This document shows, in pieces, positions 3,697-53,523 of a stretch of 64,000 nucleotides of DNA (the first letter of the stretch is position 1; each line of letters starts with the position of its first letter). Made by a program: the position numbers and the translations under genes. Origin of the DNA: Burkholderiaceae bacterium (lineage in GTDB: Bacteria > Patescibacteriota > Saccharimonadia > Saccharimonadales > AQU-01); contig JAYVTZ010000001.1 of the NCBI GenBank assembly GCA_043788365.1, positions 7,800-71,799 of the forward strand, written 5' to 3'. The notes under the pieces are model-generated. The model searched no databases and was not told the DNA's origin. It saw nothing but the letters and a program-made list of their open reading frames with translations.

Positions 3697-4614
3697 ATGC
3701 CGCTAACCATTGAAGAAATTCGTAACAACTGTCGTTTAGCCCGTGCCGCCATGGAGCGAGCCCGAACCGAACATTTTGCTCTCGGTGCCTTTAATCTCGA
3801 TAACCAAGAGACTTTAATTGCCGTTGTCAGGGCCGCCAAGGCCAAAAACGCACCGGTACTAGTTGAAGTCAGTAAGGGTGAAGTCGATGCGCTTGGGCTT
3901 GATAACGTCCGCGACCTAGTCGATAACTATAAGCGTGACATTGGGGTTGAAATGTACATTAATCTCGACCATTCACCATCTGTTGAGGACGCCAAAGCTG
4001 GTATTGACGCCGGTTTTGAGTTCATTCATATCGATATTTCCCAATCAAATCATGATGCCAGCGAAGACGAGATTATTGCCAAAACTAAAGAGATAGTTGA
4101 GTATGCCAAAAAGACCGGTGCGCTAGTCGAGAGCGAGCCACACTATTTTGGCGGCGGTTCTAACGTTTTCACCGAAGCTTTTGATTATGAAGAGATCCGC
4201 AAAACCTTCAGCACTCCAGAAGGCGCCAAGCACTTTGTTGACGCTAGCGGCGTCGATACTTACGCAGCCGCTATTGGTAACTTGCACGGTAGTTACCCAG
4301 TACCGAAAGTTCTCGATCTTGAATTATTGCAAAGAGTTCGTGATGCGATCGACTGTAACATTAGTCTGCACGGTGGTAGCGATACCCCGGGCAATTACTT
4401 CGTAGAAGCTGTAAAAATCGGCGTTACCAAGGTGAATATTAACTCAGATATGCGTAAAGCCTACCGCACGACCCTCGAAAAGGAACTGCGCGACAACCCG
4501 ACCGAATATGCTGTCATTAAACTGATGGACAAAGTAATTGCTGAGGTCCAAGCCGTGGTTGAAAGCAAGATCGACATGTTTAACTCTAGCGGTAAAGCTA
4601 AAGTTAGTGGCTAG
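3697..4614 (+). CDS. fba: class II fructose-bisphosphate aldolase family protein
   Basis: Motifs NLDHS and HGGSDTP. AGGAG lies upstream of ATG 3697. The track ORF start at 3673 lies inside tkt and was not used. Confidence 0.88.
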   Translation: MPLTIEEIRNNCRLARAAMERARTEHFALGAFNLDNQETLIAVVRAAKAKNAPVLVEVSKGEVDALGLDNVRDLVDNYKRDIGVEMYINLDHSPSVEDAKAGIDAGFEFIHIDISQSNHDASEDEIIAKTKEIVEYAKKTGALVESEPHYFGGGSNVFTEAFDYEEIRKTFSTPEGAKHFVDASGVDTYAAAIGNLHGSYPVPKVLDLELLQRVRDAIDCNISLHGGSDTPGNYFVEAVKIGVTKVNINSDMRKAYRTTLEKELRDNPTEYAVIKLMDKVIAEVQAVVESKIDMFNSSGKAKVSG

Positions 4615-4691
4615 TTTCTAGTAACTCGTATAAGACATCGAGCTCAAAGAACTTTTATACTAGAAACGAGCTACCAGTAATGAGATACTAT
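4611..4691. repeat. heptamer-array inverted pair in the fba-pfkB spacer
   Basis: Reverse arm CTAGTTT CTAGTAA CTCGTAT (4611-4631) includes the fba TAG stop. Forward arm ATACTAG AAACGAG CTACCAG TAATGAG ATACTAT (4657-4691). Confidence 0.8.
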
Positions 4692-4761: not shown

Positions 4762-5772
4762 ATGAGCGAACATGGTCAGTTAGACGTACTAGCAATCGGC
4801 GATGTTGTTACCGATGCTTTTGTAAAGTTGCTGGATGACCGTGCCACGACTTATGAAAACGATGAGGGTAAATGGTTGGCAATGCCGTTTGGCACCAAGA
4901 TTCCGTTTGATCACGCCACAATTATTGAAGGCGTTGGTAATGCCGCTAACGCGGCAGTTAGTTTCGCTCGTCTTGGCTTAAAAAGTGGTTTGATTTCAAA
5001 CGTTGGCGCCGATTCGCAAGGCAGAGACATTATTGCCGCCCTGCATAAAAAGGAAGTTGATCCGCGCTTTGTCCATATAAACCCTGGCAAAATCAGCAAC
5101 TATCACTATGTGCTTTGGTATAAAGAAGAACGCACAATACTTATCAAGCATGAAGAATACGACTACCAGTGGCCGCGTTTTCGACCGATTGATATTCCAA
5201 AATGGGTCTACTTTAGCTCAATTAGTAAAAACTCGCTCGACACTTACCATGACCACGTTGCCGAATGGCTTGAAGACAACCCAGAGATTAAATTAGCGTT
5301 TCAGCCCGGAACTTTCCAGCTAGAAGCCGGAGCTGACAGATTAAAGGCGCTCTATCAACGGACTGAAGTTTTAGTCGTCAACCGTGAAGAAGCTGTCAAA
5401 GTTTGTGGCGGCAACTACGATGACTTACACGATTTGCTTAACAAGCTGCACGACCTTGGTCCAAAAGTGGTCGTTATCACCGACGGCCCAGCCGGTGCTT
5501 ACGCCAGTGATGGCGAAAATCGTTTCAAAATGCCATCATATCCCGATCCAGCACCACCATTTGAACGCACAGGCGCTGGCGATGCTTTTGCTAGTACTTT
5601 TGTTGCAGCGCTAATGAAAGGTAAAAGCCTCGAGGAAGCTATGCGTTGGGGGCCAATTAACTCGATGAGCGTGGTTCAGCAAGTTGGTGCCCAAAATGGA
5701 CTCTTAACAGATGAAGATTTAGAAGATCTACTTGCAAAAGCACCTGATTGGTATCACCCAGAACGTTTTTAG
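4762..5772 (+). CDS. PfkB-family carbohydrate kinase (substrate unknown; possibly the cluster's phosphofructokinase)
   Basis: 336 aa. C-terminal TGAGDAF motif of ribokinase/PfkB kinases. G-rich SD upstream. Confidence 0.82.
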   Translation: MSEHGQLDVLAIGDVVTDAFVKLLDDRATTYENDEGKWLAMPFGTKIPFDHATIIEGVGNAANAAVSFARLGLKSGLISNVGADSQGRDIIAALHKKEVDPRFVHINPGKISNYHYVLWYKEERTILIKHEEYDYQWPRFRPIDIPKWVYFSSISKNSLDTYHDHVAEWLEDNPEIKLAFQPGTFQLEAGADRLKALYQRTEVLVVNREEAVKVCGGNYDDLHDLLNKLHDLGPKVVVITDGPAGAYASDGENRFKMPSYPDPAPPFERTGAGDAFASTFVAALMKGKSLEEAMRWGPINSMSVVQQVGAQNGLLTDEDLEDLLAKAPDWYHPERF

Positions 5773-5861
5773 TATCTAGTTTCTGGTAACTTGTTGTTCG
5801 TATAAACCGTTCGTGCAGGCGGCCTAGTACTAGATACTAGGAACGAGCTACTAGATACTGG
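5770..5861. repeat. heptamer-array inverted pair downstream of the pfkB-family kinase
   Basis: Reverse arm at 5776-5803 (CTAGTTT CTGGTAA CTTGTTG TTCGTAT) follows the TAG stop. Forward arm at 5821-5861 (..TACTAG ATACTAG GAACGAG CTACTAG ATACTGG). Confidence 0.8.
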
Positions 5862-5887
5862 GGAGCCTATTCCCAAATAGGCTCCCC
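5860..5887. other. perfect 12-bp stem / 4-nt loop hairpin
   Basis: GGGGAGCCTATT-CCCA-AATAGGCTCCCC, with no flanking T-tract on either strand. Confidence 0.7.
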
Positions 5888-5925
5888 AGATGTTATGCTT
5901 ATGGTAATAGAGTGGGGAAATTCTA

Positions 5926-8712: not shown

Positions 8713-10683
8713 ATGAATAAGTTTGAACTTAGGAGTGATTATAAGCCAACCGGCGACCAGCCGTCGGCCATTGCTCAATTGACTAAGGGCCTGGTCGACG
8801 ATGTTAAGGAGCAGACACTTCTCGGTGTGACGGGCTCAGGCAAGACATTTACGATGGCTAATATTATTCAGAACGTTCAAAAGCCGACGTTGATTCTTAG
8901 CCACAACAAAACATTAGCAGCTCAGCTCTACGGCGAGTTTAAGAAGTTTTTCCCGAATAACGCTGTGCATTATTTTGTTAGTTACTTTGATTACTACCAG
9001 CCAGAGGCTTACATTGCTCGGTCGGATACTTATATCGAGAAAGATTCACAGATTAATGAGGAGATTGACCGTCTGCGCCACGCCGCGACAGATGCACTGC
9101 TATCCCGCAAGGACGTCATAATTGTTGCCAGTGTCAGTTGTATTTATGGTATTGGTTCGGTTGAGGACTATGACGGTTTGGCGATTGAGGTCGTTAAGGG
9201 CGAACGTAGAGTACGTGATAAGTTCCTGCGTCAATTAACAGACATTCAATATCAGCGTAACGATATTGACTTCCACCGTGGCACATTTAGGGTTCATGGC
9301 GATGTCGTTGACATTTTCCCGGCTGGTGAAGAGTTGGCTTATCGGATAGAGTTCTTTGGTGATGACGTGGAGCGGATTACTAAGGTTGATCCGTTAACTG
9401 GCGAAATTCTCGAAAAGCTTGACAGTTTTAAAATTTTTCCGAGTTCGCACTACGTCACACCATTTGAGAAGTTGAAGGGCGCTTTGGTCAATATCGAAGA
9501 AGAGCTAAAAGACCGGTTGGCGTTATTCAAAAAGAATGGTCAGTTACTTGAAGCCCAGCGCCTAGAACAAAGAACCCGCTTTGACGTTGAAATGCTCGAA
9601 GAGACCGGCTTCGTTAAAGGTATCGAGAACTACAGTCGCTACCTAACCAACCGTGAGCCAGGCGAACAACCAGCCACGCTACTCGACTATTTTCCAGATG
9701 ATTTTCTGATGTTTATCGACGAGTCGCACATGACGATACCGCAAGTTCGGGGCATGTATAACGGCGACCGCGCCCGTAAAGAAGTGCTTGTCGATTATGG
9801 CTTCCGTTTACCTAGCGCATTAGATAACCGGCCACTAACATTTACTGAATTCGAGAAGCACATAAATAAAGTCGTTTACGTTAGTGCCACACCAGCCCAA
9901 TATGAGCTTAGCCGTAGTCCAGAGCCTGCCCAGCAAGTTATTCGCCCGACAGGGCTTCTTGATCCAGTTATTGAGTTAAGACCAATTGAGGGTCAGATAG
10001 ATGACTTGATTGCTGAGATTCGCAAGACCGTTGCCAAGCGACAGCGCGTACTTATAACGACTCTTACGAAGCGCATGTCTGAGGATTTGACTGAATATCT
10101 CAAAGAAATAAATATTAAAGTAACTTATTTGCATAGTGACGTCGAGACTTTGGAGCGCACCGACATATTAAGAGATTTAAGACTTGGTATTTACGATGTT
10201 GTGGTCGGTATTAACTTACTACGCGAAGGTCTAGATTTGCCAGAAGTTAGCCTAGTGGCGATTTTGGATGCGGACAAAGAAGGTTTCTTAAGAAGCGAAC
10301 AAGCTCTAATTCAAACTATTGGTCGGGCCGCCCGTCATGAAGAAGGCCGTGTCTTAATGTATGCCGACCACATCACCGGTAGTATGCAACGAGCCATGGA
10401 TGAAACGACTCGTCGCCGCAAGATTCAGGAAGACTACAACACCGCTCACCATCAGAGCCCGGTCGGCATCACGCGCTCAATTGAAAAGGGTATGAGGCCG
10501 GAGCTAACCGAAGAGGCAAAATCAGTTAAATTGAATCTGAATAAGATTCCAAAAGACGAATACAAACACATTATTAAAGACCTGACAGGTCAGATGGATA
10601 TCGCTGCCCTAAACTTGCAATTCGAAACCGCCGCCGAACTGCGCGACATGATCACTGATATCAAAAAACGCCTCGAAAAGTAG
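8713..10683 (+). CDS. uvrB: excinuclease ABC subunit B
   Basis: 656 aa. Walker [17 protein letters not shown] motif, C-terminal UVR domain (FETAAELRD). Confidence 0.97.
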
Positions 10684-10772: not shown

Positions 10773-11066
10773 ATGACTAACCTCACACGCGAAGATGTCT
10801 TAAAATTGGCCGAACTAGCTAAGCTAGAGCTGTCAGAAGATGAAGTTGATAAATTTGCGAGCGAAATTAGCGAGATTTTAGGTTACGTCGAGCAGCTACA
10901 ATCAGTTGACGTTAAAGGTCTTGAACCGACCTATCAAGTGACCGGACTTCAGAATGTTACCCGCAAAGACGAAATTATTAACTACGGTGTATTGCGCGCG
11001 GAACTGCTAAAGAATTTGCCCGAACAAGAGAATGGTCAAATCAAGGTAAAGCGGGTACTGACATGA
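10773..11066 (+). CDS. gatC: Asp/Glu-tRNA amidotransferase subunit C
   Basis: Typical GatC N-terminus MTNLTREDVLKLAELAKLEL. The track start at 10749 is a TTG extension. Confidence 0.88.
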   Translation: MTNLTREDVLKLAELAKLELSEDEVDKFASEISEILGYVEQLQSVDVKGLEPTYQVTGLQNVTRKDEIINYGVLRAELLKNLPEQENGQIKVKRVLT

Positions 11067-12499
11067 GTCAGTGGAAGTCGATCAAACAACTAGCTGATGA
11101 TGTCAACGCAAAGCGAACATCCGCATCCGATTTAGTTGCTACGGCACTTAAAACAATCGAAGATAGAAAAGACTTTAATGCCATTATCGCCACTACTGCC
11201 GAACGGGCTAGACAGCGTGCCAAAGATATTGATAACAAAGTTGCGAACGGCGAAAATGCTGGCAGGTTAGCTGGTGTGCCATTTATTGCCAAAGATAACT
11301 TTTTAGTTTTTGGGGCCGAAACGACGGCTGCTAGTAACATCTTAAAAGGTTTCAACGCACCTTATCAAGCGACAGCAATCGAGCGACTGGAAGCTGAAGG
11401 CGCTATTTGTGTTGCCAAGGCTAACCTCGATGCTTTTGCCCACGGTTCTAGTACTGAAAATAGTGACTTTTTCACAACACTTAACCCGCTCGATAAAACT
11501 CGTGTGCCAGGTGGTTCATCAGGCGGTTCAACGGCTGCCGTTATACTCGACATGGTACCGTTTGCGCTCGGTACTGACACTGGTGGTTCGATTCGCTTGC
11601 CGGCATCATTTTGCGGTGCCGTTGGCTACAAGCCGACTTATGGTCTCGTCTCGAGGTCTGGAGTGGTTGCGATGGCCAGTAGTTTGGATGTTGTCGGACC
11701 GCTAACTCGTACTGTCGAAGACGCTGCAATTGTGCTTGACGTCATGTCTGGCAAAGACCCACTCGACAGCACCGCCGTCGACAAAGATGAAAAAGGCTAC
11801 GAACTCATAACTCTCGGCCAGTCGGCGAAGCTCTCAGCTGTCCGGATTGGTGTTATCAAAGAATACATGGCAGAAGGCCTAGACGAAGAAGTTAAAAAGA
11901 GTATCGAAGCCTCAATTGCTAAATTAAAGGCCGCTGGTGCCGAAATAATCGAAGTTAGTCTACCGTCATTGCCACTTGCTCTAGCCGTTTATTATATCGT
12001 TTGTCCGGCTGAAGTCAGTAGTAATCTTAGCCGTTATGATGGCCAGCGCTATGGCTTTAGCGATAAAGAGGCAAAAAATCTGGACGAGAGCTATAAGCAG
12101 TCCCGCTCAATCGGTTTTGGTAACGAAGCTAAACGTCGGATTATGATCGGTACTTACGTGCTTAGCAGTGGCTACTACGACGCCTATTATAAGCGTGCTC
12201 AAATTGTTCGCACTAAGCTGATAAATGAATTCGCCGACGCCTTCAAACAGGTCGACTTCTTGATTGGTCCGACAGCACCGTCTACTGCCTTTAAAATTGG
12301 TGAAAATATAGCCGATCCGCTGAAGATGTATCTGACTGATATTATGACCGTTGCCGTAAACTTAGTCGGTGTGCCGGCGATAAGTTTGCCTAGTTTAATA
12401 GACAAAGGCATGCCCATCGGTTTACAGTTAATCGCACCTGCGTCACACGATCGTCAATTATTAGAAATTGCCTTAACTTCGGAAGGATTGTTAAAATGA
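11063..12499 (+). CDS. gatA: Asp/Glu-tRNA amidotransferase subunit A (amidase signature)
   Basis: 478 aa. GGSSGGS amidase signature. 4-nt overlap with gatC. Confidence 0.96.
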   Translation: MSQWKSIKQLADDVNAKRTSASDLVATALKTIEDRKDFNAIIATTAERARQRAKDIDNKVANGENAGRLAGVPFIAKDNFLVFGAETTAASNILKGFNAPYQATAIERLEAEGAICVAKANLDAFAHGSSTENSDFFTTLNPLDKTRVPGGSSGGSTAAVILDMVPFALGTDTGGSIRLPASFCGAVGYKPTYGLVSRSGVVAMASSLDVVGPLTRTVEDAAIVLDVMSGKDPLDSTAVDKDEKGYELITLGQSAKLSAVRIGVIKEYMAEGLDEEVKKSIEASIAKLKAAGAEIIEVSLPSLPLALAVYYIVCPAEVSSNLSRYDGQRYGFSDKEAKNLDESYKQSRSIGFGNEAKRRIMIGTYVLSSGYYDAYYKRAQIVRTKLINEFADAFKQVDFLIGPTAPSTAFKIGENIADPLKMYLTDIMTVAVNLVGVPAISLPSLIDKGMPIGLQLIAPASHDRQLLEIALTSEGLLK

Positions 12500-16201: not shown

Positions 16202-19200
16202 GTGCCGGGAAAAACCTTAGAGTCTAGTGACTATGTACACCTACATAATCATACGCAATACAGTCTATTAGATGGTTTGACCAAGATACCAGAGCTTGTT
16301 GATGCTGTAAAGTCGTTTGATATGTCGGCCGTGGCTATTACTGACCATGGCACGATGTCGGGTGTGATTGAGTTTTATAAGACTGCTAAAGCGGGTGGCA
16401 TAAAGCCATTGATTGGCATGGAAACTTATGTTGCACCTAGAACTCATGTTGATCGTGACCCGTCGAAAGATAAGACTCCCTTTCATCTTATATTGTTAGC
16501 AATGAATAACCAGGGTTATCAGAACTTAATGAGGCTAAGTACGACCGCTAACCTCGATGGTTTTTATTATCGTCCTAGAATTGATCATGACCTGCTCGAG
16601 AAATATAACAAAGGTCTAATTGTGCTGAGCGGTTGCATAGGTGGTGAGATTAGTGATGCGATGCGTCAAAATCAGTATAGTCAGGCCAAAAAAATCGCTG
16701 AGTGGTATAAATCAATTTTTGGTGACCGCTATTACCTTGAAATACAAGACCATGGTCACGCTGACCACCCAGCCAGATGGGATGAACAGTCTGCAGCCAA
16801 TGAGCAGATTTTGAAACTTGGCAAGGAACTAGATATTAAGGTAGTGGTGACCTGTGATGCTCACTATTTAAGACACGATGACCAAGAAGCACATGAAATC
16901 TTATTATGTGTTCAAACTGGTTCATTCTTAAGCGACGAAAAGCGCATGTCATTAAAAGAATTTGAGCTACACGTTACCGACCCAAAAGAAATTATCAAGC
17001 GTTGGGGCGATGATTACCCAGACGTTGTAAAGAATAGTCGTGAGATTGCCGACCGTTGTGAGGTTGTGCTAGAACTCGGAAAGATTTTGATACCGCAGTT
17101 TCCAGTCCCGAAAGGCGAGAGCGAAAAGTCGTATCTACATAAGCTAGCATGGAGCGGCTTGGCTTGGCGCTATGGAAAGATTGATAACGATAAAGCCTTC
17201 AAACTGACAATTCAACAGGCCAAGAAGACGCTAACAACAGAAATTGTTGAGCGAGCTCAGTATGAACTAGAGATAATGGATTCTATGGGCTTCAACGGCT
17301 ATTTTCTAATCGTCCAAGACTTTATAAATTGGGGCAAGGATCAGGGTATTATTTTTGGGCCCGGGCGCGGATCAGCCGCTGGATCGATTGTGGCCTATGC
17401 GCTTCGTATTACAGAAATAGAGCCTCTGAGATATAACTTAATGTTTGAACGATTTTTAAACCCAAGTCGAATAAGTATGCCTGATATAGACATCGATATA
17501 CAAGATTCACGTCGTGATGAGGTGATTGAATATTGTGTCGAAAAATACGGCAAGAATCGTGTTGCTAACATTGTCACCTTTGGTAGAATGGCGGCTCGCA
17601 ACGCTGTCCGTGATGTATCTCGGGTATTACAGGTGCCATATGCTGAAGCCGACCGATTGGCTAAAATGATTCCACCACCAATCCAAGGACGTCATATACC
17701 GCTTGCAAAATCAATTGTTGATGACCCTGATCTAAAACGAGAGTATGAGGCTAGTGATTTAACTAAGAGAGTCTTTGATTTGGCAATTCGTTTAGAGGGT
17801 ACCATTCGTTCACATGGTGTTCATGCTGCTGGTGTTGTCATTGCCCCAGATGATATCGTCAAGTTCGCGCCTCTTGAGATGGCACAAAAGGGCGTGGTTT
17901 CGACGCAGTATTCGATGGGACCAATTGAAGAACTAGGTCTACTCAAAATGGACTTTTTGGGGCTTTCTAATCTGACGATTATAAAAAATGCACTGAGAAT
18001 TATTAAAAAAGTTTACAAAAATGACATTGATTTAAGTACGATACCAGTTGATGATTCTAAGACGTTTGAGCTACTGCAGCGAGCAGACACGACTGGTGTC
18101 TTCCAGCTTGAATCAGCGGGTATGAAACGTTACTTAAAGGAGCTAAGACCGACACTATTCGACGATATTATTGCAATGGGTGCTTTGTATCGTCCTGGGC
18201 CAATGTCAGAGATCCCGCGCTTCATCGAAGGTAAGAATAACCCTAGTTCAATTAGTTATCTTCACGAATCACTTGAGCCAATCTTAAAAGATACTTACGG
18301 TGTTATGGTCTATCAAGAGCAGATAATTAAGCTGCTGCAGCTTGTGGCCGGATATACTCCAGGTGAAGCTGACTTGGTGCGAAAGGCGATTGGCAAGAAA
18401 AAGCGTGACATCATGGAGGCAGAGGAACCGAAGTTCATCGAGGGCTGTATTAAACAGGGTCTGAGCCGGGCCGACGCTGCCAAGCTATGGTCACAAATCC
18501 AACCATTTGCTGATTATTCGTTTAACAAGGCGCATGCCACTTGCTATGCCCAGATATCATACTGGACTGCGTATCTAAAAGCACACTATCCAGCAGCATT
18601 TATGGCGGCGGTAATGACCAGTGACTACGATGATATCGATCGCCTGAGCATTGAAATCGGCGAATGTAAACACATGGGTCTAGAAGTTTTAGCGCCAGAC
18701 GTTAATCAGTCATTCGGCGAGTTTGCGGTTGTTCCAGGCAAAAGCAATCAGCAAGCTCAAATACGCTTTGGTATGAATGCCATCAAGAATGTTGGTGCTG
18801 GTGCAGTCGAAGAGATTATTAGGTCTAGAGAAGTTGACGGTAAATTCGTCAGTTTAGAAGATTTCTTTGCCAAGGTAAGTCCAAGAATTGTTAATCGCAA
18901 AGGTTTGGAAAGTTTAATTAAAGCTGGTGCCTTTTCGGAGTTTGCTGACAGAGGACTCCTTCTTAATAATATTGATACGCTACTAGCCTATGCAAATCGA
19001 CTACAAAAGGAGAAAAACAGTGGCCAAACCGACCTATTCGGTAATCAAGCTGAGTCTGGGGCTATGACTCCTAAGCTAGTTTTAGATGACTCTGGTCCAA
19101 GCTATGTTACTCGCGATGAACTACAGTGGGAGCGGGAACTGCTTGGGCTTTATCTTTCTAGCCATCCCTTAGAGCAGTACAGATTGTTTCTGGAAGAGCA

Positions 19201-21425: not shown

Positions 21426-21436
21426 AAGTTCTGATT

Positions 21437-21598
21437 ACAGTATCTCGTATCTAGTCTCTCGTTACTAGTAGCTAGGCAATTAATGTATGTCGTATATAGT
21501 TTCTCGTATTTCGTATAATGGCAAATCAACAGTGCATAAACCAGTTAGGTGAAGCTTGTCTCTATACTAGAAACTAGTTACTAGCTACAAGATACTAA
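21437..21598. repeat. heptamer-array repeat cluster in the divergent trmH/pilB intergenic region
   Basis: Units on the reverse strand at 21437-21478 and 21489-21516. Units on the forward strand at 21564-21598 (ATACTAG AAACTAG TTACTAG CTACAAG ATACTAA). Confidence 0.8.
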
Positions 21599-23295: not shown

Positions 23296-23817
23296 ATGCA
23301 AAATCTGATTCAGGCAGTAGATGCCAAGTACAAAAAACATGCCGTCGTCGACGTTAAGTCAGGTGACACAGTTAAAGTTCATCAAAAAATTAAAGAAGGC
23401 GCCAAAGAGCGTGTTCAGATTTTTGAAGGTCTGGTTATACGTGCTTCACGCAAGGATAGCCTGACTAGTACAATTGCGGTTCGCAAGATTGCCAGTGGTG
23501 TTGGTGTTGAGAAAACCTTCCTATTACATAGCCCAAATGTTCTTAAAATTGAAGTAACCAAGCGTAGTAAAGTCCGTCGTAATTACTTAAGCTATATGCG
23601 CAAACTTACCGGTAAGAACGCCCGACTTTCTAGCGTTGATTTTGATAAACGTGGTGTTAACGATATCCATGATGCTGCCGCTGAAGCCGAAGAAGTCAAA
23701 CTACACGAAGAAGTTGAAGCCGCCGCTAAGGCTGAAGTTGAAGCTAAGGCTGCCGAAAAAGCCGCTGAAGACGCCAGGGCTGAAGCTATTATTGCTGCTC
23801 GCGAAAAAGCCGAATAG
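23296..23817 (+). CDS. rplS: 50S ribosomal protein L19 with Ala/Glu/Lys-rich C-terminal extension
   Basis: Core GDTVKVHQKIKEG...ERVQIFEGLVI. 173 aa versus a usual length of about 115. Confidence 0.93.
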   Translation: MQNLIQAVDAKYKKHAVVDVKSGDTVKVHQKIKEGAKERVQIFEGLVIRASRKDSLTSTIAVRKIASGVGVEKTFLLHSPNVLKIEVTKRSKVRRNYLSYMRKLTGKNARLSSVDFDKRGVNDIHDAAAEAEEVKLHEEVEAAAKAEVEAKAAEKAAEDARAEAIIAAREKAE

Positions 23818-23986
23818 TATCTAGTTACTAGTAGCTAGACACCGGTATAAAACACTAATATTTTACCTAACCGTCTTATACGAGCTACTAGAAACAAGCC
23901 ACTAAATGCTCTTACGTGAATAAATTATGAATTTAGCAGTCATTATACTAGCTACTAACTTCTAGATACGAGATACTAGTAACATG
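23815..23986. repeat. heptamer-array composite repeat filling the rplS-rnhB spacer
   Basis: Reverse-oriented units at 23821-23841. Forward units at 23878-23905 and 23945-23986, the last being TAACATG, which contains the rnhB start. Palindromic core at 23921-23935. Confidence 0.8.
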
Positions 23987-29164: not shown

Positions 29165-29191
29165 CTAGCACTCTTGCACTCCGAGTGCTAA
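29165..29191. promoter_or_regulatory. CIRCE element (HrcA operator) upstream of clpC
   Basis: CTAGCACTC-N9-GAGTGCTAA versus consensus TTAGCACTC-N9-GAGTGCTAA. Confidence 0.85.
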
Positions 29192-29203
29192 GTTTGCTAT
29201 TAT
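29174..29203 (+). promoter_or_regulatory. candidate clpC promoter TTGCAC-N18-TATTAT overlapping CIRCE
   Basis: -35 at 29174-29179 lies in the CIRCE spacer. -10 at 29198-29203. Confidence 0.45.
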
Positions 29204-29242
29204 TTAAGAAGGCCGTAAAAGCAACTAAATATTGTATGGCCA

Positions 29243-29277
29243 ATACTAGCAACTAGTAACGAGGTACTAAATACTAT
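29243..29277 (+). repeat. heptamer array abutting the clpC start codon
   Basis: ATACTAG CAACTAG TAACGAG GTACTAA ATACTAT, then T ATG. Confidence 0.8.
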
Positions 29278-31832: not shown

Positions 31833-32801
31833 ATGAATTCGCATAAAAGCAGAAATGGTCTGATTGTATCGATGTTGTTGCTGTTATCTGTATCCTTCGC
31901 CTGGTATCAGCGCCAATATATTTACGACTGGTCGAGGCTACGTAACTATAGCGTAAGTATTGGTATGAGTGAGTTAGCAACCGCCACAACTATGAACGCT
32001 AAGGCACGTAATATTTTTTATGTTCAACACCCCGAGCTCGACAATAAAGTCGTCTTTGATGGTAAGTGTGATGTTGGCGAACAGACGATTGTGCTTGGTT
32101 GTTACATTAGTAAAAAGGGTATTTTTGTTTATGATGTAACAGACGCCAGGCTAGCTGGTGTTAAAGAAGTTACCTCGGCTCACGAGATGCTACATGTTGC
32201 CTATGACCGGTTGAGCCAAAAAGACCGAATAGCCGTCGATTCGATGGTCGAGAATGCCTACTCTAAACTCAATGATACCCGTATAAAAGACACAGTTGAG
32301 CAATATAAAAAGAACAAAGCCGATGTTAAGGATGAATTACATTCGATTCTAGGCACAGAGGTCAGAACCTTGCCAGCTGACCTAGAGAGTTACTATAAAA
32401 AATATTTTGATAATAGGCTTGTAGTTGTTAGTTTTTCAGAGAAGTATGAAAGTGTATTCACGGATAGAAAAAATAAAGTCGAACAGTTCGACCAGCAACT
32501 TAACTCTCTGAAAGTAAGAATTGATTCATCGCAAGCCGATCTAGCGTCGCAGATAATTACAGTTGACCAAAAGCGTGAGCAACTTGACGCCGAGCTAGCC
32601 GCCAGTCGTTATGATCTATATAACGCCGGGGTTGCACCATTTAATAGTCTAGTTAAGTCCTATAACAATAAAATCGCTAGCACAAGGGGCTTAATTGACC
32701 AGTATAATCAGACTCTCGATCAGCGAAATGCAATAGCCCTAGAAGAGCAAGAGCTTTACAAGGCCATCGATAGTCGACTGACAACACAAACCGCTAAATA
32801 G
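31833..32801 (+). CDS. membrane-anchored hypothetical protein with HExxH motif and coiled-coil C-terminus
   Basis: 322 aa. N-terminal TM helix. SAHEMLHVAY. Confidence 0.8.
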   Translation: MNSHKSRNGLIVSMLLLLSVSFAWYQRQYIYDWSRLRNYSVSIGMSELATATTMNAKARNIFYVQHPELDNKVVFDGKCDVGEQTIVLGCYISKKGIFVYDVTDARLAGVKEVTSAHEMLHVAYDRLSQKDRIAVDSMVENAYSKLNDTRIKDTVEQYKKNKADVKDELHSILGTEVRTLPADLESYYKKYFDNRLVVVSFSEKYESVFTDRKNKVEQFDQQLNSLKVRIDSSQADLASQIITVDQKREQLDAELAASRYDLYNAGVAPFNSLVKSYNNKIASTRGLIDQYNQTLDQRNAIALEEQELYKAIDSRLTTQTAK

Positions 32802-32945
32802 TATTTAGTAGCTAGTATAAAAATAGGTAAATTCATAATTAATTCACCTTTTGTATCTAGTACCCCTGTTTCTCGTATTTTGTATTAAGACATGAGAGAA
32901 TACGCAGATTATTTCAATCCCTTATCTCCGAATACTAAGTACTAC
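32798..32945. repeat. heptamer-array composite repeat downstream of 31833..32801
   Basis: Starts at the TAG stop. 32805-32891 is homologous, in inverted orientation, to 23873-23958. Confidence 0.75.
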
Positions 32946-40685: not shown

Positions 40686-42719
40686 ATGACACTAGATTCG
40701 ATTGTAGTTGAAATTAATGGAATTGGTCCAGCCTTGGCCGAAAAGTTCAAGTCGGTTGGCATCACTACGATTTCTGACCTAGTCGATTATTACCCACGCC
40801 GTTATGACGATTATTCACATATCGAGACAATTTCCGCCATTCAACCTGGTGTCGTAACAATTCGGGCAGTTATCAAACAGGTCCGTGGTCGCTATGTTAA
40901 GCGCGGATTGCATATTACTGAAGCTGCGGCCAGCGACGAAACCGGTAGCGTTAGATTGGTTTGGTTTAATCAGCCTTATCGGGCAAATGCCATCAAGCCG
41001 GAAACTGAGTATTTTATTTCTGGTCAGTTTGAGCTAAAGTCTGGTCGACTGGCAATCATGAACGCTTCAATGGAGCTGGCTAGTGATTTCCCGGTCAGTA
41101 CGGCGCGGATAGTACCGATTTACCGCGAGACCAAGAATATTAAGTCGTTGCAAATTCGTCGGGCGCTGCGCGAAGTTGGCCCGCTGATTAGTAAATTGAC
41201 TGAAACTTTGCCGACTTGGCTTATTAAAGAGCAAAAACTGATGAGTAAAAGCGAGGCGATTATGGCGATTCACTTCCCGCGTGATGCTGACCATTTGGCA
41301 TTGGCCCAACGACGGCTGGGTTTTGAAGAAGTCTTCGAACTAACTCTGGCAAGTTTGCTAAATAAGTATGAATTACTCCAGGAACACGCTCTGTCGATTC
41401 CATTCAAACAAGAATTAGCTAAGCAATTCGTGTCACACCTTCCATTTAAGTTAACTGATGCTCAACGAGTCGTAATCTGGCAAACTTACCAAGACCTAGA
41501 AAAAACTCAACCGATGAATCGACTAATTGAAGGTGACGTCGGTTCTGGTAAAACTGTTGTGGCGACGATGGCGGCATTAATGGCGCTCGAGCAAGGCTAT
41601 CAAGTCGCATTAATGGCTCCAACTGAACTACTGGCTAGGCAGCATGCCGAAACAATCTACAAATTACTTGAACCCCTAGGTTATGCCGACCAAGTTGGTT
41701 TGCTAGTCGGTAGCCTAAAACCAGCCCAAAAGAAAATAGCTCAAGACAAGATTGCCAGTGGCGAAATTCGGCTGATGATCGGCACTCATGCCCTGATTCA
41801 AGAAAAAGTTGATATGCATAAACTTGGACTGATTATTGTTGATGAGCAGCATCGTTTTGGTGTCGAACATCGCAAGAAGCTCCAAGCCAAGGCTGGTCAC
41901 GCACTGCACGTGCTTAGTATGACGGCGACACCTATACCACGCAGCTTGGCGTTGACACTGTATGGTGAAATGGATATCTCAATAATAGATACTAAGCCAG
42001 TTGGACGAAAGACTATCATCACCAAGATTACTTCCCCAAATTCTCGCCCTGCTTTGTATGAAAAGATTGATAAGGAGTTAGAAGCTGGGCGTCAAATGTT
42101 TGTCGTGACACCATTAATTACCGATTCTGAAGTAGTTGTAGCAGCATCGGCAGAGAAGGTTTACGCAGATATGAAACTAGCTTTTGCTAATCGCCGCGTA
42201 GGGCTCATGCACGGCAAGCTAAAGTCAGACGATAAGAATGCGGTCATGGAGCAGTTTGTTAGCGGCGAGCTGGATATACTGGTGTCAACGACAGTGATTG
42301 AGGTTGGTGTCGATGTGCCGAACGCGACTGTTATGCTGATCGAGAATGCTGAACGTTTTGGTCTTGCTCAAGTACACCAGTTGCGTGGGCGGGTTGGTCG
42401 TAGTGATTATCAAGGCTATTGTTATCTGATGATGGGTGATTCGTCGGCGCCAAGTCGCCGACTTTTGGCACTTGAAAGCTCATCAGATGGTTTTGCATTG
42501 GCTGAACTAGATTTGCAGATTCGTGGTCCAGGGGCAATTTATGGCACGATGCAACACGGTCAGCTTGACCTCAGGATTGCCAAACTAACAGATATAAAAT
42601 TGATTGCCAGCGCCAGAAGTTCAGCCCAAAGGTTTATCGATGAAGGTGAAAATCTGTTACAATATGGTCATCTGGCTCAACGAGTTCAACACTTACGAGC
42701 AGTCACAAACCTAAACTAG
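40686..42719 (+). CDS. recG: ATP-dependent DNA helicase RecG
   Basis: 677 aa. Wedge domain, GDVGSGKT, DEQHRFG. Confidence 0.96.
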   Translation: MTLDSIVVEINGIGPALAEKFKSVGITTISDLVDYYPRRYDDYSHIETISAIQPGVVTIRAVIKQVRGRYVKRGLHITEAAASDETGSVRLVWFNQPYRANAIKPETEYFISGQFELKSGRLAIMNASMELASDFPVSTARIVPIYRETKNIKSLQIRRALREVGPLISKLTETLPTWLIKEQKLMSKSEAIMAIHFPRDADHLALAQRRLGFEEVFELTLASLLNKYELLQEHALSIPFKQELAKQFVSHLPFKLTDAQRVVIWQTYQDLEKTQPMNRLIEGDVGSGKTVVATMAALMALEQGYQVALMAPTELLARQHAETIYKLLEPLGYADQVGLLVGSLKPAQKKIAQDKIASGEIRLMIGTHALIQEKVDMHKLGLIIVDEQHRFGVEHRKKLQAKAGHALHVLSMTATPIPRSLALTLYGEMDISIIDTKPVGRKTIITKITSPNSRPALYEKIDKELEAGRQMFVVTPLITDSEVVVAASAEKVYADMKLAFANRRVGLMHGKLKSDDKNAVMEQFVSGELDILVSTTVIEVGVDVPNATVMLIENAERFGLAQVHQLRGRVGRSDYQGYCYLMMGDSSAPSRRLLALESSSDGFALAELDLQIRGPGAIYGTMQHGQLDLRIAKLTDIKLIASARSSAQRFIDEGENLLQYGHLAQRVQHLRAVTNLN

Positions 42720-42746: not shown

Positions 42747-42790
42747 TGGCTAGAAAAACTAGTCACTAGAAACTAACTACTAGATACTAT
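42747..42790 (+). repeat. heptamer array abutting the start of 42795..43676
   Basis: TGGCTAG aa AAACTAG TCACTAG AAACTAA CTACTAG ATACTAT, then aaaa ATG. Confidence 0.8.
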
Positions 42791-44545: not shown

Positions 44546-44630
44546 GCGGATGTGGTGGAATTGGTAGACACGCTAGCCTTAGGAGCTAGTGTCGCAAGAC
44601 GTGAAGGTTCAAGTCCTTTCATCCGCACCA
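44546..44630 (+). tRNA. tRNA-Leu (anticodon TAG), type II with long variable arm, CCA encoded
   Basis: Hand-folded. Acceptor GCGGATG/CATCCGC. Anticodon stem CTAGC/GCTAG with loop CTTAGGA. Variable arm GTCGCAAGAC. T-arm GAAGG-TTCAAGT-CCTTT. 85 nt. Confidence 0.93.
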
Positions 44631-44637
44631 TATTTAA

Positions 44638-44660
44638 AGCCCCTCGAAAGAGGGGTTTTA
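44638..44660 (+). terminator. rho-independent terminator after tRNA-Leu
   Basis: CCCCTC-GAAA-GAGGGG followed by TTTT. Confidence 0.8.
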
Positions 44661-44749
44661 AATATGGTACAAATTAAGTCTTGAACCTTCAGACCCGCTT
44701 TAGCGGGTGAAGGTTAGCCCGCGCGAAGCCGGACGCTGTCCTTTCATCC
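44650..44749 (+). repeat. direct repeat DR1 (tRNA T-arm-derived hairpin element ending in a copy of the tRNA 3' end)
   Basis: 44654-44724 is identical (71/71) to 44997-45067. Hairpin arms at 44684-44698 and 44703-44715. The 3' block CTGTCCTTTCATCC matches the tRNA 3' end. Confidence 0.9.
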
Positions 44750-44772
44750 CCATCATCTGTTAAGCTATAGTA

Positions 44773-44994
44773 ATGAGTTACGAGTTTTTGAGTAATTTAA
44801 GCGACGATGATGCTGCGAAACTTGTAGGTAAAGTTATTAATAGACTACCACATCATCATGGCCGAATCGGATCGGCAATCATGGAAGTCTTAGAATTTTC
44901 ACCACCAGAAGGCACAGATATTAATGCATTTAATGCAAGTGTCATGGGTGATGCGCTGAGAATAATAGGAGACAGCTCAGTCCCTGAGGAATAA
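44773..44994 (+). CDS. small hypothetical protein bracketed by DR1 and DR2
   Basis: 73-aa ORF. DR2 begins 1 nt after its TAA. Confidence 0.45.
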   Translation: MSYEFLSNLSDDDAAKLVGKVINRLPHHHGRIGSAIMEVLEFSPPEGTDINAFNASVMGDALRIIGDSSVPEE

Positions 44995-45096
44995 GAGGTT
45001 TTAAATATGGTACAAATTAAGTCTTGAACCTTCAGACCCGCTTTAGCGGGTGAAGGTTAGCCCGCGCCGTATGCACGACACTGTCCTTTCATCCGC
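44995..45096 (+). repeat. direct repeat DR2
   Basis: Same 71-nt core as DR1. Variable 13-nt segment, then CTGTCCTTTCATCCGC, of which 14 nt (GTCCTTTCATCCGC) are identical to the tRNA-Leu 3' end. Confidence 0.9.
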
Positions 45097-45184
45097 TCAA
45101 ATCATTAGATTCAATTCAACGCATCTTCTTTAGTCTGACAGGTTTATGAATAATATAATCATCACTGGTAGTCGAAACAATGAA

Positions 45185-45193
45185 TGATATAAT
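45185..45193 (+). promoter_or_regulatory. extended -10 box TGATATAAT, 6 nt upstream of ATG 45200
   Basis: Sequence tgatataat tttggt ATG. Confidence 0.45.
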
Positions 45194-45199
45194 TTTGGT

Positions 45200-45451
45200 A
45201 TGAATAGTATTGATGACAGTACTTATATTGGGGTAATTTTAGAAGAAGTCCGCGACCAGAACAAGCTAGTCCTTGAAGCAGTTGGTGATATGAAGAAGAA
45301 CATTGATAAAATACCTAAAATTGAGGCTGATGTCGTAGAGCTTAAGCAAGATATGAAAGTGGTTAAAGATGTGGTCAAAGATATTAGTGCGCATATAAAT
45401 AACCACGAACTCAGAATTACTAAACTTGAACTTGGCAGACGATCTATCTAA
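45200..45451 (+). CDS. small hypothetical coiled-coil protein
   Basis: 83 aa. Heptad-rich (VVELKQDMKVVKDVVKDI). Confidence 0.55.
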   Translation: MNSIDDSTYIGVILEEVRDQNKLVLEAVGDMKKNIDKIPKIEADVVELKQDMKVVKDVVKDISAHINNHELRITKLELGRRSI

Positions 45452-45585
45452 CTATTGAAATCAAATGTCAGAATCCGCAAAAATTTAATACGGGCAATTC
45501 TATTCAGAGCATACAAACAGGAACTGAGCTTACTAATAAGTCGTTCAGATAAGCTCTAGGGGTGTTGAAAAGAGCCAAAATCCTC

Positions 45586-45591
45586 TATAAT
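45586..45591 (+). promoter_or_regulatory. candidate -10 box TATAAT upstream of the giant surface-protein gene
   Basis: TTGAAA lies 15 nt upstream, which is short spacing. AAGG sits 7 nt before GTG 45633. Confidence 0.35.
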
Positions 45592-45632
45592 AATGCTTAA
45601 GATTAAGGGGTCTAAAAAGCTAAGGTTTAGAC

Positions 45633-48600
45633 GTGCAGAGGCCAGAGGGAAAAGGTAGAATCATTACCGACTTTACTCCTGTTAAAAAAGGAGCGGGGCA
45701 GGCAGTACCAAAAATCTTGGCCAAAAGTCCTGCAAAAAAGTTGCCGTTGCGAAATAGGCTAAAGCTCCGAGCCAGAAAACAAAAGCTTAAGCTGGCTAGA
45801 CTTGCCAAGCCGTCAAAGATACCTTTGATCAGGTTCACTCCTCGCACTCTCTCAGCCGGCATAATCATCCTAACCCTACTCGGCTTAATCATAGGCAACT
45901 CCCTCTACCAATCCTCCAAATACAAAATAAACCGCACTAAAGTAGCCTTCCTATCCCATAGCTCCATAGACACAACCTTCATCAAACAAGATAGTAAAAG
46001 CTTTAGCTACGACCGTAGCGCCGAACAATCTGCAATAAGTACTAACGACAAAGGCCAAAAACAACTAACTGTAGCTAGTCCAACTGACGCTACCGGCATA
46101 GACTCATACAAGGCCACCCTACCCAAGAATCCTAAAGACGGCATAACCTTTAGTGACTCTAAAGGTACTAATAGCTTTAACCTAAAACCACTAGACAAAG
46201 CTGTTAATTCATCTCTGCTTGGTGGTCGCCTAGATAGTGGCAATATAGTCTATCCAAGTAGTAACAACTCTAACGAGAAACACATCTATTCCTTCAAAAA
46301 GAACGGCATTAAGGAAGATATTCTCCTAACAGCCAAACCAAGCACTAAAGAACTAAACTACGCCTATACTCTAACCCTAAACTCTGACCAAGAAGCCAGA
46401 GCCAACCCAGACGGATCAATTGGCATCTACATTGCTAACCCAAACAATACAAGCTCAAACAGCACCAACCCAAACAATACAGCTAGTCAACCTAAAGACT
46501 ACCTTGTCTACGTCCTACCTAAACCCTTCATCATAGACAGCAGAGGAGTAAAGAACTATGAGGATGTCTTCTACAAGCTAGAAGCAAGCAAACAAACAAC
46601 AACAGGCAATAGCAACCAGACGGGAAACAACGGAACGAATGGCCAAGCTGGCAGCACCTACACCCTAACCCTAGAAGCTCTAAACATGCTAAACAAGAAC
46701 TATCCTCTAAGTATTGACCCTACTATTACAGTCACAACCACAGCTGACTTTAGACAAGGCTTAGACGATGGCATGCTAGACTACACCACCACGGCTGATC
46801 AAGTGGCGAGGGCGAATGTGTCATTGGGGACAATGGGAACAGCCACAACTCAAACTGCGGCATTTACAACCAAAAGATCGTCACCAACTGCATTAGCTTA
46901 TAATGGCTACGCTTATATATTCGGTGGATCATTTCAAAGTTCGCTCATACAATCAAGCGTCTATACTGATATACAGTATTGTCCAATCAACACCAACGGA
47001 AGCCTTGGGACATGCACGACAAACTCCACAGGATTAGCTGCCGCACCTGATCCTTGGGAGTCATTTATTTATAACGGCAGTATCTATAGCATTCTCGGTT
47101 TTGGCTTTGGCATGGTGCAACGATGTATTATCAATTCTAATGCTTCCGTTAGTCCGTGCACATTTCAGACTGGTATAAGTAACCTATCAAAACAGCCTCT
47201 TTTTCTTCACGATAATTTTTTGTTTACTATTTCAGCGGGGGATGTAAACAGATGCCCGTTCAATAGCGATGGATCAATAGGAAATTGTACAACCCAAAGC
47301 GCAGTTTATAATTCGAACTGGGGCGTGGCATCAGCAGAAATATATAATACTTGGCTTTACGTCACTAGCATTGATGTTAGCGGATTTATGAGTATGATGA
47401 TTTGTCGGATTAATCCGGACGAATCGGTAAGTAACTGTACTCATTCGGTTACATCTTTGGTTGGACGATCTGGATACGGATTAGCAGCATATAGAGGATA
47501 TTTATATATAATAGGCGGTCACGATTTTTTTGCTACGTTATACGATGTGGATGAAGCGCCAATTAATGCCGACGGGTCTATCGGCAGCTTAACGACTCTA
47601 AACATACTGAACACAAAACTTTCACTGATGGGGGCATTTATTTACGATGGATATCTGCATGTTATGGGTGGTAATTTTAAAAACGGTGGAACTTTTTTTA
47701 ATACTAATGATGCGGAGTATGTACCAATTAATACTGGCACGCCAACCTTTGGTACGGTCAGCTCTGCGACGCAGCAAACAAGCGCCTTTACGACAGCGCG
47801 CTATAACCAGACTTCTGTGGTCTACGACGGCTATCTCTATATCATTGGCGGCTGTCACGATGCAGCGTCGCCGCCGTGTGATGTGTTACTGAATGACATT
47901 CAGTACTGCCCGATAAATAGCGATGGCTCGATAGGCGCCTGTACTCAGCAGACCAACGCCTTTACTACGGCTAGGGCATACCACGCAACGGCGATACTCA
48001 ACGGCTATTTATATATTGTCGGCGGGCAAACCGGCGCTTTAACTGTCACGAACGATGTTCAATATTGCCAGATCAATAACAATCACTCTGTCGGTACATG
48101 CACTCAACAGACTAACGCCTTTACGACCGCCAGAATGAGCCATGCTTCTTTTGCCTATAACGGCTATTTATATATTGTCGGCGGCCAAAGCTTTGCGCCA
48201 ACCTCTGGCTGTACGCCGGTCGATTATTGTGACGATATCCAATATTGTCCAATAAATTCTAACGGCTCAGTTGGAGCCTGTACTCAGCAAACCTCTGCCT
48301 TTACAACCGCCCGTGATTTCCTTTCTTCGCTGACGTACAACGGCTATCTCTACATTGTTGGCGGTTTTAGTAACGGTGGAGCGTTAAATGATATTCAATA
48401 CTGCCCAATCAACTCTAATGGTTCAGTTGGGGCTTGTACCCAGCAGGCAGCGGCCTTCACTACTCCAAGATACAACCTGCGGTCGGTAGCCTATAATGGC
48501 TATTTGTATATAATTGGCGGCCAAGATAACGCCAGTATCCCGTTAAGTGATTTGCATCATTGCCCCATAAATAGTAACGGCTCAATAGGTACATGTACTC

Positions 48601-49472: not shown

Positions 49473-49474
49473 TT

Positions 49475-49492
49475 AAATTTTAGTCTTGAACC
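49475..49492 (+). repeat. partial third copy (DR3) of the DR 5' module, 2 nt after the giant gene stop
   Basis: AAATTTTAGTCTTGAACC versus AAATTAAGTCTTGAACC in DR1 (44671-44687) and DR2 (45014-45030). Confidence 0.6.
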
Positions 49493-49581
49493 CTTATGCC
49501 TGCCAAGCAGTGAAGCCTATCTGGCTCACGACTGTATTTGCTTGCTGGTGGGCCATGCTGTCATTCCAATCGCAAAAGTCT

Positions 49582-53455: not shown

Positions 53456-53496
53456 TATTAATGCCCGTTAGGGCCGAGCGCAGGAATTGTAAAAAG

Positions 53497-53523
53497 TTAG
53501 CACTCGCACTTGACGAGTGCTAA
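53497..53523. promoter_or_regulatory. CIRCE element (HrcA operator) upstream of clpP, perfect consensus arms
   Basis: TTAGCACTC-GCACTTGAC-GAGTGCTAA. Confidence 0.9.

Follow-up and report, generated by a model that had tools for sequence, protein, structure and literature searches.

Phased heptad arrays at gene boundaries of a Saccharibacteria genome resemble a lineage-specific dispersed repeat

The genomes of Saccharibacteria and other Patescibacteria are tiny and their spacers very short, and our search of the literature returned almost nothing on how their transcription units start and stop. A repeat that lengthens such spacers by 35–170 nt, preserves a phased 5-nt core and aligns with stop codons and leaderless -10 boxes is either a selfish element that has survived deletion pressure or a working part of gene punctuation. 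This question is raised by a 64-kb stretch of a Saccharibacteria (TM7; Saccharimonadales) genome with a GC content of about 45%, hereafter the window, in which directional arrays of heptamers, here called arms, lie in the spacers between genes. The relatives of its RplS and PfkB proteins all come from Saccharibacteria metagenome-assembled genomes, and its sequence recurs identically in contigs of other samples, which extend it by about 0.9 kb. Tentatively, we favour the reading that the arms are copies of a lineage-specific dispersed intergenic repeat, similar to repetitive extragenic palindrome (REP) doublets forming hairpins (REPINs), bacterial interspersed mosaic elements (BIMEs) or miniature inverted-repeat transposable elements (MITEs), and that their conserved heptads are putative protein recognition sites.

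The window carries 14 arms of one directional module of about 35 nt (12 clear, 2 degenerate), spread over seven spacers and all confined to the intergenic 6.4% of the sequence (Table 1). Alignment of the copies gives a head (T)TATAC(T/G)AG, three NNAC(T/G)AG units and a tail ATACTA(N), that is, five phased heptads: ATAC(T/G)AG, three times NNAC(T/G)AG, and ATACTAN. The 12 clear arms align as a single module of 35–37 nt with five units in each, and arms are found singly, in inverted doublets (about 90 nt) or in sets of three (about 140–165 nt). Chains of at least three AC.A[AG] cores at exact spacing number nine at period 7 and none or one at the other periods from 4 to 11, against a chance expectation of 0.07 +/- 0.25 period-7 chains (maximum 1) in 200 first-order Markov simulations. 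An autocorrelation scan that is blind to the motif likewise returned six segments at lag 7 and none at the other lags among 4–11.

Within the middle units, conservation is concentrated on the core. The information content is 0.21 bits at N1, 0.43 at N2, 1.69 at A3, 1.82 at C4, 0.54 at K5, 2.0 at A6 and 1.07 at G7, so that the core hardly varies at its A, C and A, and the two spacer bases are free; a chi-square test against uniform decay gives p ~5e-10. Adjacent units within an arm are rarely identical. Near-identity appears instead between distant arms. An initial annotation of this DNA had noted that one 23-nt module, GTTTCTAGTAACTCGTATAAGAC (4614–4636), matches the reverse complement of 23873–23895 at 22 of 23 positions, and had argued from this for copies of one element over chance low complexity. 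Both statements hold: none of 100 shuffles produced such a match, the similarity between arms R1 and F4 reaches 33 nt at 94% identity in opposite orientation at distant loci, the clear arms align as one module, and a profile built from them has no convincing match across about 620 kb from other Saccharibacteria loci (its best hit, a 14-nt fragment, has E 4.1). Furthermore, arm R5 with 21 further nucleotides (to 32847) is 84% complementary to 23916–23964 over 49 nt, a match that runs 27 nt past the heptads.

Collectively, the phased core, the fixed number of five units, the near-identical inverted copies at distant loci, one with a 27-nt flank, and the lineage-specific spread speak against decaying microsatellites and a purely hairpin role, and point to a dispersed repeat read by a protein. 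We propose that an A-C-x-A-(G) core every 7 bp with free spacers would be the recognition pattern of an oligomerising protein, which would account for a core that is kept while the spacers drift. Such a protein would either copy and maintain the element or be a DNA-binding factor of the host.

Two other accounts of the motif were set aside. Three-frame stop codons as a selected feature were rejected, since stop-free ACGAG/CTCGT units are common. A DNA-uptake signal or restriction-site avoidance is unsupported (CTAG, 283 observed against 244 expected).

The arms are tied to gene boundaries. The tails of all 14 point outward, to the nearest open reading frame (ORF) boundary, which bears out the initial annotation's view that the arms are gene-oriented. 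Every paired spacer contains the reverse arm or arms followed by the forward arm or arms, heads face to face. The divergent trmH|pilB spacer, in which the arrays had been said to flip, has this same layout with tails outward. F6 and F7 are without a reverse partner. The outer ends of the pairs read (T/C)AGTATCT... and ...AGATACT(A/G), forming terminal inverted repeats. Gene identities rest on Pfam matches on the identical contigs (F_bP_aldolase, PfkB, SpoU_methylase, T2SSE, Ribosomal_L19 and RNase_HII), and the flanked genes (pfkB, trmH, pilB, rnhB, clpB, radA and two unknowns) form no coherent regulon.

Table 1. Arms and neighbouring repeat features of the window. E values are for matches to a profile built from the 12 clear arms, which also recovers the two degenerate arms (E 0.18 and 5.2).
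Feature	Position	Strand	Spacer set	Detail	E value
R1, reverse arm	4602..4636	-	4602-4691	minus-strand read TTATACGAG TTACTAG AAACTAG CCACTAA; contains fba stop TAG (4612-4614)	5e-06
F1, forward arm	4655..4691	+	4602-4691	TTATACTAG AAACGAG CTACCAG TAATGAG ATACTAT	2e-06
R2	5770..5806	-	5770-5860	tail CTA is the TAG stop of the pfkB-family kinase (5770-5772)	1.5e-05
F2	5826..5860	+	5770-5860	tail merges into the perfect hairpin	1.2e-07
Perfect 14-bp stem-loop, not a heptamer arm	5858..5889	+		CTGGGGAGCCTATT/AATAGGCTCCCCAG; -26.4 kcal/mol, z -6.6	
R3	21438..21475	-	21438-21598	tail GATACT 13 nt before trmH (SpoU) ATG at 21425; arm ends 11 nt before it	3e-07
R3b, second and more degenerate reverse arm of the divergent spacer	21483..21519	-	21438-21598		3e-04
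F3	21562..21598	+	21438-21598	just upstream of the conserved leaderless pilB promoter TATACTTATGCTTATG	1.5e-07
R4	23815..23851	-	23815-23979	tail CTA is the rplS TAG stop (23815-23817)	3e-06
F4, internal forward arm	23875..23911	+	23815-23979	94% identical over 33 nt to R1 reverse complement	1.2e-06
F5	23943..23979	+	23815-23979	tail GATACT at -12..-7 of rnhB ATG (23984)	1.1e-06
F6, lone forward arm before clpB	29242..29277	+	29242-29277	tail AATACT 6 nt before second ATG (29282)	7e-07
R5, short arm, 2 units + tail	32799..32826	-	32799-32945	tail CTA is the TAG stop of ORF 31833..32801 (32799-32801)	0.18
R6, degenerate reverse arm	32853..32897	-	32799-32945	weak	5.2
Degenerate forward-arm remnant	32930..32945	+	32799-32945	GAATACTAAGTACTAC; recognised by eye only	
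F7, lone forward arm	42755..42790	+	42755-42790	tail GATACT at -12..-7 of ATG 42795 (293-aa gene)	8e-06

At stop codons, the initial annotation had described a TAG that is itself the first element of a reverse array, with a forward array following, after fba, the pfkB-family kinase, rplS and ORF 31833..32801. A TAG stop and a reverse array are present at all four. The tail CTA complements the stop at the last three genes; at fba the array does not start with the TAG, which lies inside the fourth unit, so that the array reaches 8–10 nt into the ORF. A forward array follows in the first three spacers, and in the fourth there is only the degenerate remnant. The TAG bias that the annotation had proposed to tabulate is present, 4 of 4 arm-flanked genes against 14 of 55 genes overall. 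However, a sister clade, described below, also ends in TAG at three of the four genes with no ACNAG-type arm after it (a CATTGA-type array follows pfkB instead), and TAG at these genes therefore mostly predates the arm. RplS itself (L19; 23296–23817) has 173 amino acids here and 141 in the sister clade, with a different C-terminal extension.

At start codons, the arms meet apparent leaderless promoters. We scored a -10-like hexamer as xAxxxT with at least 4 of 6 matches to TATAAT. Of 55 genes, 18 have such a hexamer 6 or 7 nt upstream of the ATG, against about 1.5 genes for each other offset; the starts of this type in the window include 8713, 39401, 45200, 31833, 37507, 14390, 50146 and 21614. 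Other Saccharibacteria loci show a weaker -10 peak at 7 nt, and non-Saccharibacteria controls show none. Leaderless mRNAs thus appear common in this organism, at about one third of the genes in the window. The tails of F5, F6 and F7 fall at this offset, reading GATACT-N6-ATG before rnhB and the 293-aa gene and AATACT-N6-ATG before the second ATG of clpB. These three arms end 1–4 nt before the ATG, and none of the three genes has a clear Shine–Dalgarno (SD) sequence. Orthologues agree with this placement: in most of about 28 other Saccharibacteria loci a -10-like box (TACAAT, TATAAT, TATACT or GATACT) lies about 6–9 nt upstream of the rnhB start, and in L004, a member of the sister clade, CATACT stands 7 nt upstream of the trmH ATG and is homologous to the R3 tail GATACT. 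By position and orthology, the tails of F5, F6, F7 and R3 thus sit where a leaderless -10 box would be expected. The remaining ten arms are not at gene promoters. F3 is just upstream of the pilB promoter, and F1 and F2 lie 66–70 nt from the next start (F1 ends 70 nt upstream of the pfkB-family ATG, and that gene has its own SD); reverse arms at stop codons would, if active at all, drive antisense transcription. Reading the head TATAC(T/G) as a -10 box, in either direction, was considered separately and rejected, as the T-7 equivalent is T in 5 of 11 arms forward and in 2 of 11 reverse.

The coincidence of tails with -10 boxes is consistent with the promoter half of a proposal in the initial annotation, in which the arms form terminator–promoter cassettes or REP-like RNA hairpins. 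Reverse and forward arms would pair on read-through mRNA and end or stabilise the upstream transcript, and the forward arm would promote the next gene. For the three or four start-adjacent tails of forward type (F5, F6 and F7 at -12..-7, and R3, with the orthologous rnhB and trmH boxes) the promoter half is supported. The hairpin half fares less well. Spacers with paired reverse and forward arms do fold better than shuffles, modestly (z -2.3, -2.7, -2.1, -3.6 and -2.2), the site of R4/F4, downstream of rplS, is taken up by a canonical intrinsic terminator in the sister clade, and one convergent spacer of that clade (L084–L087, ~11012–11090) contains an inverted CATTGA/TCAATG pair with strong folding on either strand (z -4.3 and -4.6). 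However, same-orientation arms fold no better than shuffles (21436–21525, z +0.78; 23860–23982, z +0.91), and partner-specific complementarity, tested by duplex energies over all reverse-by-forward combinations, was not found: partners average -23.5 and non-partners -24.9 kcal/mol, and the true partner ranks 5/7, 7/7, 5/7 and 7/7. Through the common core, every reverse arm can pair with every forward one, and there is no sign of selection on partner pairing. The stems are A+U-rich and consist of 5-bp blocks interrupted by 2-nt mismatches at the free spacer bases. No U-tract follows them, and consensus terminator scans list no terminator in the arm spacers and no excess across the window. F2 is already followed by a separate perfect hairpin, the stem-loop at 5858–5889, which has no counterpart in the sister clade's spacer. 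For the lone arms F6 and F7 and for the divergent spacer, no hairpin can form within a single transcript. We regard a cassette or RNA hairpin as the purpose of the arms as quite unlikely; under the dispersed-repeat reading, weak and interrupted hairpins on read-through RNA would be a by-product of inverted arms.

The arms could also act as RNA. Forward arms, transcribed as (AC(U/G)AG-N2)n, would serve on the mRNA as binding sites for the ribosome or for a multimeric RNA-binding protein, and would control the translation of genes without an SD. A (U/G)AG every 7 nt, arms that end immediately before the ATG of three such genes, and the position of F6 all fit this idea; F6 is located downstream of a promoter overlapped by CIRCE (controlling inverted repeat of chaperone expression) and would lie inside the 5′ leader if that promoter is used. 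There is also a parallel in the TAACTGA repeats of Beggiatoaceae, which mostly end a few nucleotides from start codons, where ribosome-binding sites (RBSs) are rare (PMC4679880). Nevertheless, half of the arms have the opposite orientation, in which the sense RNA is CUNGU; the tails of F5 and F7 are best read as leaderless -10 boxes, which would put the array outside the mRNA of the gene; and F1, F2 and F3 are 15–70 nt from the start. A role as an RNA leader is, on this evidence, very improbable.

We then compared the arm spacers with those of relatives. L003, L004 and L084–L087 form one sister clade, with 93–97% nucleotide identity among themselves and about 70–75% to the window. The sister clade is without arms in the orthologous spacers fba|pfkB, trmH|pilB and 322aa|radA, and its fba|pfkB spacer measures 63 nt in L084–L087 against 147 nt in the window. 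Before rnhB, it carries an in-phase decayed copy of F5 that matches at 25 of 35 positions by our own count from the printed sequences, so at least that arm is older than the split. These comparisons fit a family that predates the split and may have stayed sharp only in the lineage of the window. The sister clade has an array of its own, with (N)NCATTGA units at period 7–8 after the pfkB stop (L084 2472–2611). No lag-7 arrays are present in 20.8 kb of a third lineage, for which amino-acid identity is about 80%. In L017, a more distant Saccharibacterium, NCCTANN arrays (10302–10331 and 17443–17475) stop 3 nt short of two ATGs, those of rnhB and another gene, placing TAnnnT at -12..-7, and the last two units are identical in each. 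The literature we searched holds no account of such arrays in Saccharibacteria.

Scans of wider databases returned heptamers of other kinds. In metagenome contigs, a scan with TACTAGNNACTAGNNACNAGNNAC gave no further copies of the module and mostly near-perfect NNACTAG microsatellites at GC 0.31–0.68. Such tandem arrays are widespread in JGI metagenome contigs (L090–L169), where the assembly frequently breaks off within them at a contig end, and in some contigs (L108, L113 and L095) the array runs right up to an ATG. In viral contigs, the matches to a scan with ACNAGNNACTAGATACT were nearly all single. Twelve IMG/VR contigs of GC 0.35–0.41 (L211, L212, L221, L225, L226, L242, L250, L260, L265, L271, L276 and L283) are the one exception, with a conserved but unrelated array of four units; they share the stretch CTACTAAATACTAG(G/A)GACTAGATACTAG(T/C)(A/G)ATTTGGCGGAG, which includes four ACTAG-type heptamers, and no tRNA lies there.

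The abundance of NNACTAG microsatellites brings up the alternative that the arms are decaying heptanucleotide simple sequence repeats (SSRs) which arose by replication slippage at ATACTAG-like seeds, such as -10 boxes or TAGT after stops, with neither function nor mobility. Heptamers are reportedly the commonest long SSR class in most prokaryotic genomes examined (Mrazek 2007, as cited in PMC4679880); L017 and L011 have heptamer runs of their own with identical neighbouring units; and the arms have outer ends that fall on ancestral sequence. Neutral decay, however, would strike all seven positions equally, and here the core is kept and the spacers are free. Nor would it be expected to leave five units with a distinct head and tail, neighbouring units that are rarely identical, or near-identical inverted copies at distant loci, one of them with 27 nt of flank outside the repeat. 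We hold this origin to be highly doubtful.

The dispersed-repeat reading is ranked first because close relatives lack the arms and the flanked genes form an incoherent set. If a protein copies the element, selection would act on the element itself, such that copies with an intact core would spread while their spacers drift. By position, the outward ends abut and overlap boundary signals that were already there: the CTA of the tail is the complement of TAG, and at rnhB, clpB, trmH and the 293-aa gene xATACT lies where a leaderless -10 hexamer would be expected. That the tails match TAG stops and ATACT boxes may owe as much to insertion or seeding at microhomology as to function.

Several observations weigh against this reading. 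Copy number and orientation counts come from this one window. The information profile is partly inflated, as some arms were first found by a regular expression that fixes the core; repeat-family detection and the lag-7 scan are not subject to this bias. Spacer bases differ between most copies, a difference that plain copy-and-paste would need long divergence to produce, and the sequence between arms is not conserved among copies, save for the one 27-nt stretch common to two of them. Comparison with the sister-clade spacers revealed no target-site duplication (the flanks are TA/TG, CA/TA and TA/TA, with TA itself part of the tail). The same comparison indicates that in at least five cases the bases at the very edge of the arm (TAG, or ATACT from a -10 box) are ancestral and not inserted, so seeding by microhomology or slippage fits as well as insertion. 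Finally, Pfam scans of 20 window proteins identified no transposase, REP-associated tyrosine transposase (RAYT/Y1) or small DNA-binding protein, the window gene tables list no Y1 transposase, and no insertion sequence (IS) was seen within the window.

If the protein belongs to the host instead, the arms would be operators or insulators. A regulator or architectural protein would polymerise on five phased heptads, and would tune or occlude leaderless promoters that consist of a -10 box only, insulate transcription units, or mark centromere-like sites, with any mobility incidental. The ω (ParB) protein of plasmid pSM19035 offers a model, as it binds contiguous 7-bp repeats, direct and inverted, with one dimer per repeat and four contiguous repeats for full activity (PMC9499535). 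The conserved core with free spacers, the unit number fixed at five and the use of arms in both orientations suit such a protein. So does the overlap of arms with positions -5 to -40 of three leaderless promoters, and since the window has no excess of canonical terminators, another way of marking boundaries is conceivable. Against this, the flanked genes make up no regulon, and the sites are wholly missing in close lineages, which is unusual for a host regulatory system. The window proteins scanned include no candidate (no ribbon-helix-helix protein among the 20), and an operator does not need the strict tails-outward polarity. Host operators are, in our judgement, unlikely, although the evidence does not separate element-copying and host-protein readings well.

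A broader idea spans both versions of the protein-read repeat. The arms may be the places where an undescribed protein system of a Patescibacterium reads DNA heptads, either for a small mobile element with ends of five ACNAG heptads or for the protein marking of transcription-unit boundaries. We consider this a doubtful extrapolation. In the boundary-marking version, the genome would rely on leaderless promoters of a -10 box only and possess few intrinsic terminators; an array occupied by its protein would prevent read-through at a stop codon and control use of the -10 box at the start that follows. If true, the CATTGA and CCTA arrays of related species would be dialects of the same principle. 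The 35-bp sequence is in any case a defined probe with which to fish out a binding protein.

Other repeats in the window are distinct from the arms. CIRCE-like inverted repeats, TTAGCACTC-N9-GAGTGCTAA, at 29166–29192 and 53493–53522 overlap the promoters of clpB and of a 200-aa gene (53545); the clpB copy is kept in the sister clade, and the third lineage has an imperfect one (ending GAGTGCCAA) upstream of clpP. A tRNA-Leu (44546–44630) is followed by two 79-nt direct repeats, 44646–44724 and 44989–45067, that are 96% identical, with a partial third copy at 49476–49503; the repeats bracket a 1279-aa protein whose gene contains DNA repeats of about 160 nt. The third lineage is without the 44546–49581 block between the same flanking genes, and the block is probably an island inserted at the tRNA. 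Rfam 15, at both gathering and E-value thresholds, gives no match in the arm spacers. At E <= 1 the whole window yields, both elsewhere, only the tRNA-Leu and a sub-threshold match to Ysr141, a Yersinia small RNA, on the minus strand at 41483–41719 inside recG (39 bits against a gathering score of 196), which is almost certainly chance.

In its behaviour the repeat resembles REPINs, BIMEs or MITEs, and in its fabric it resembles bacterial heptamer arrays. A REP is a short, species-specific, palindromic unit of Proteobacteria with a conserved GTAG, tied to a RAYT transposase. Like REPs, BIMEs and REPINs, the arms are short, intergenic, often just after stops, variable between close relatives and arranged in foldable inverted doublets (~70–110 nt in length). 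Unlike them, they are direct heptad arrays that are neither palindromic nor self-folding, they have no GTAG motif (the core is ACNAG/CTAG), and no RAYT is among the 20 window proteins scanned. Arm pairs share terminal inverted repeats with MITEs, but show no target-site duplication and no conserved interior, and have no related IS in the window.

Other systems offer partial likenesses. The RNA sites of HutP and TRAP are (U/G)AG triplets with fixed spacers, situated in one leader with a terminator or antiterminator and bound by a ring protein. The arms resemble them in having (U/G)AG repeats with 4-nt spacers, a conserved core and free spacers; they differ in occupying many loci in either orientation, and for several arrays transcription together with the gene is improbable. 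The consensus heptad of ω is WATCACW. The heptad parS sites and operators of ω likewise comprise at least four contiguous 7-bp units, direct or inverted, a resemblance of structure only: their sequence is different, and they serve plasmid partition and repression through a known ribbon-helix-helix protein, whereas the arms are chromosomal, dispersed and 18–70 nt apart (PMC9499535, PMC2441792). The TTTTGAT heptads of Vibrio cholerae ctxAB are also in tandem just upstream of a core promoter, where they recruit transcriptional regulators, but they occupy a single locus and have identical units in variable copy number (10.1101/2021.05.14.444153). As far as the citation of Mrazek (2007) in PMC4679880 describes them, the cyanobacterial short tandemly repeated repetitive (STRR) sequences and long heptanucleotide SSRs share the 7-base period, the intergenic location and a lineage-specific unit; those are near-perfect tandems of variable copy number, in contrast to the two degenerate positions, fixed number and tie to ORF boundaries found here.

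The closest published precedent in form is the TAACTGA heptamer direct repeats of marine Beggiatoaceae and some Cyanobacteria and Bacteroidetes, for which RNA or ribosome binding has been proposed and function is untested (MacGregor 2015, PMC4679880). They too are intergenic arrays (of 2–6 heptamers) strongly oriented to the downstream start and ending within a few nucleotides of it, their distribution is patchy and lineage-specific, and the unit is similar (TAACTGA and, for example, TAACTAG). The likeness at the forward end, a few nucleotides before a start codon, holds for F5, F6, F7 and R3 and not for the other ten arms. The differences are as marked. There the units are identical, and here two of seven positions are free; inverted sets are 1 in 170 there, and here half of the arms are inverted and abut stop codons; and the arms have a fixed number of five units and a distinct head and tail, the tail coinciding with a leaderless -10 box. 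The window thus adds a second case to the open puzzle of heptamer arrays before start codons, of which TAACTGA is the known one. New in it are a fabric that is degenerate yet phased, a fixed module, inverted doublets placed at stop and start boundaries, an association with leaderless promoters and the host phylum.

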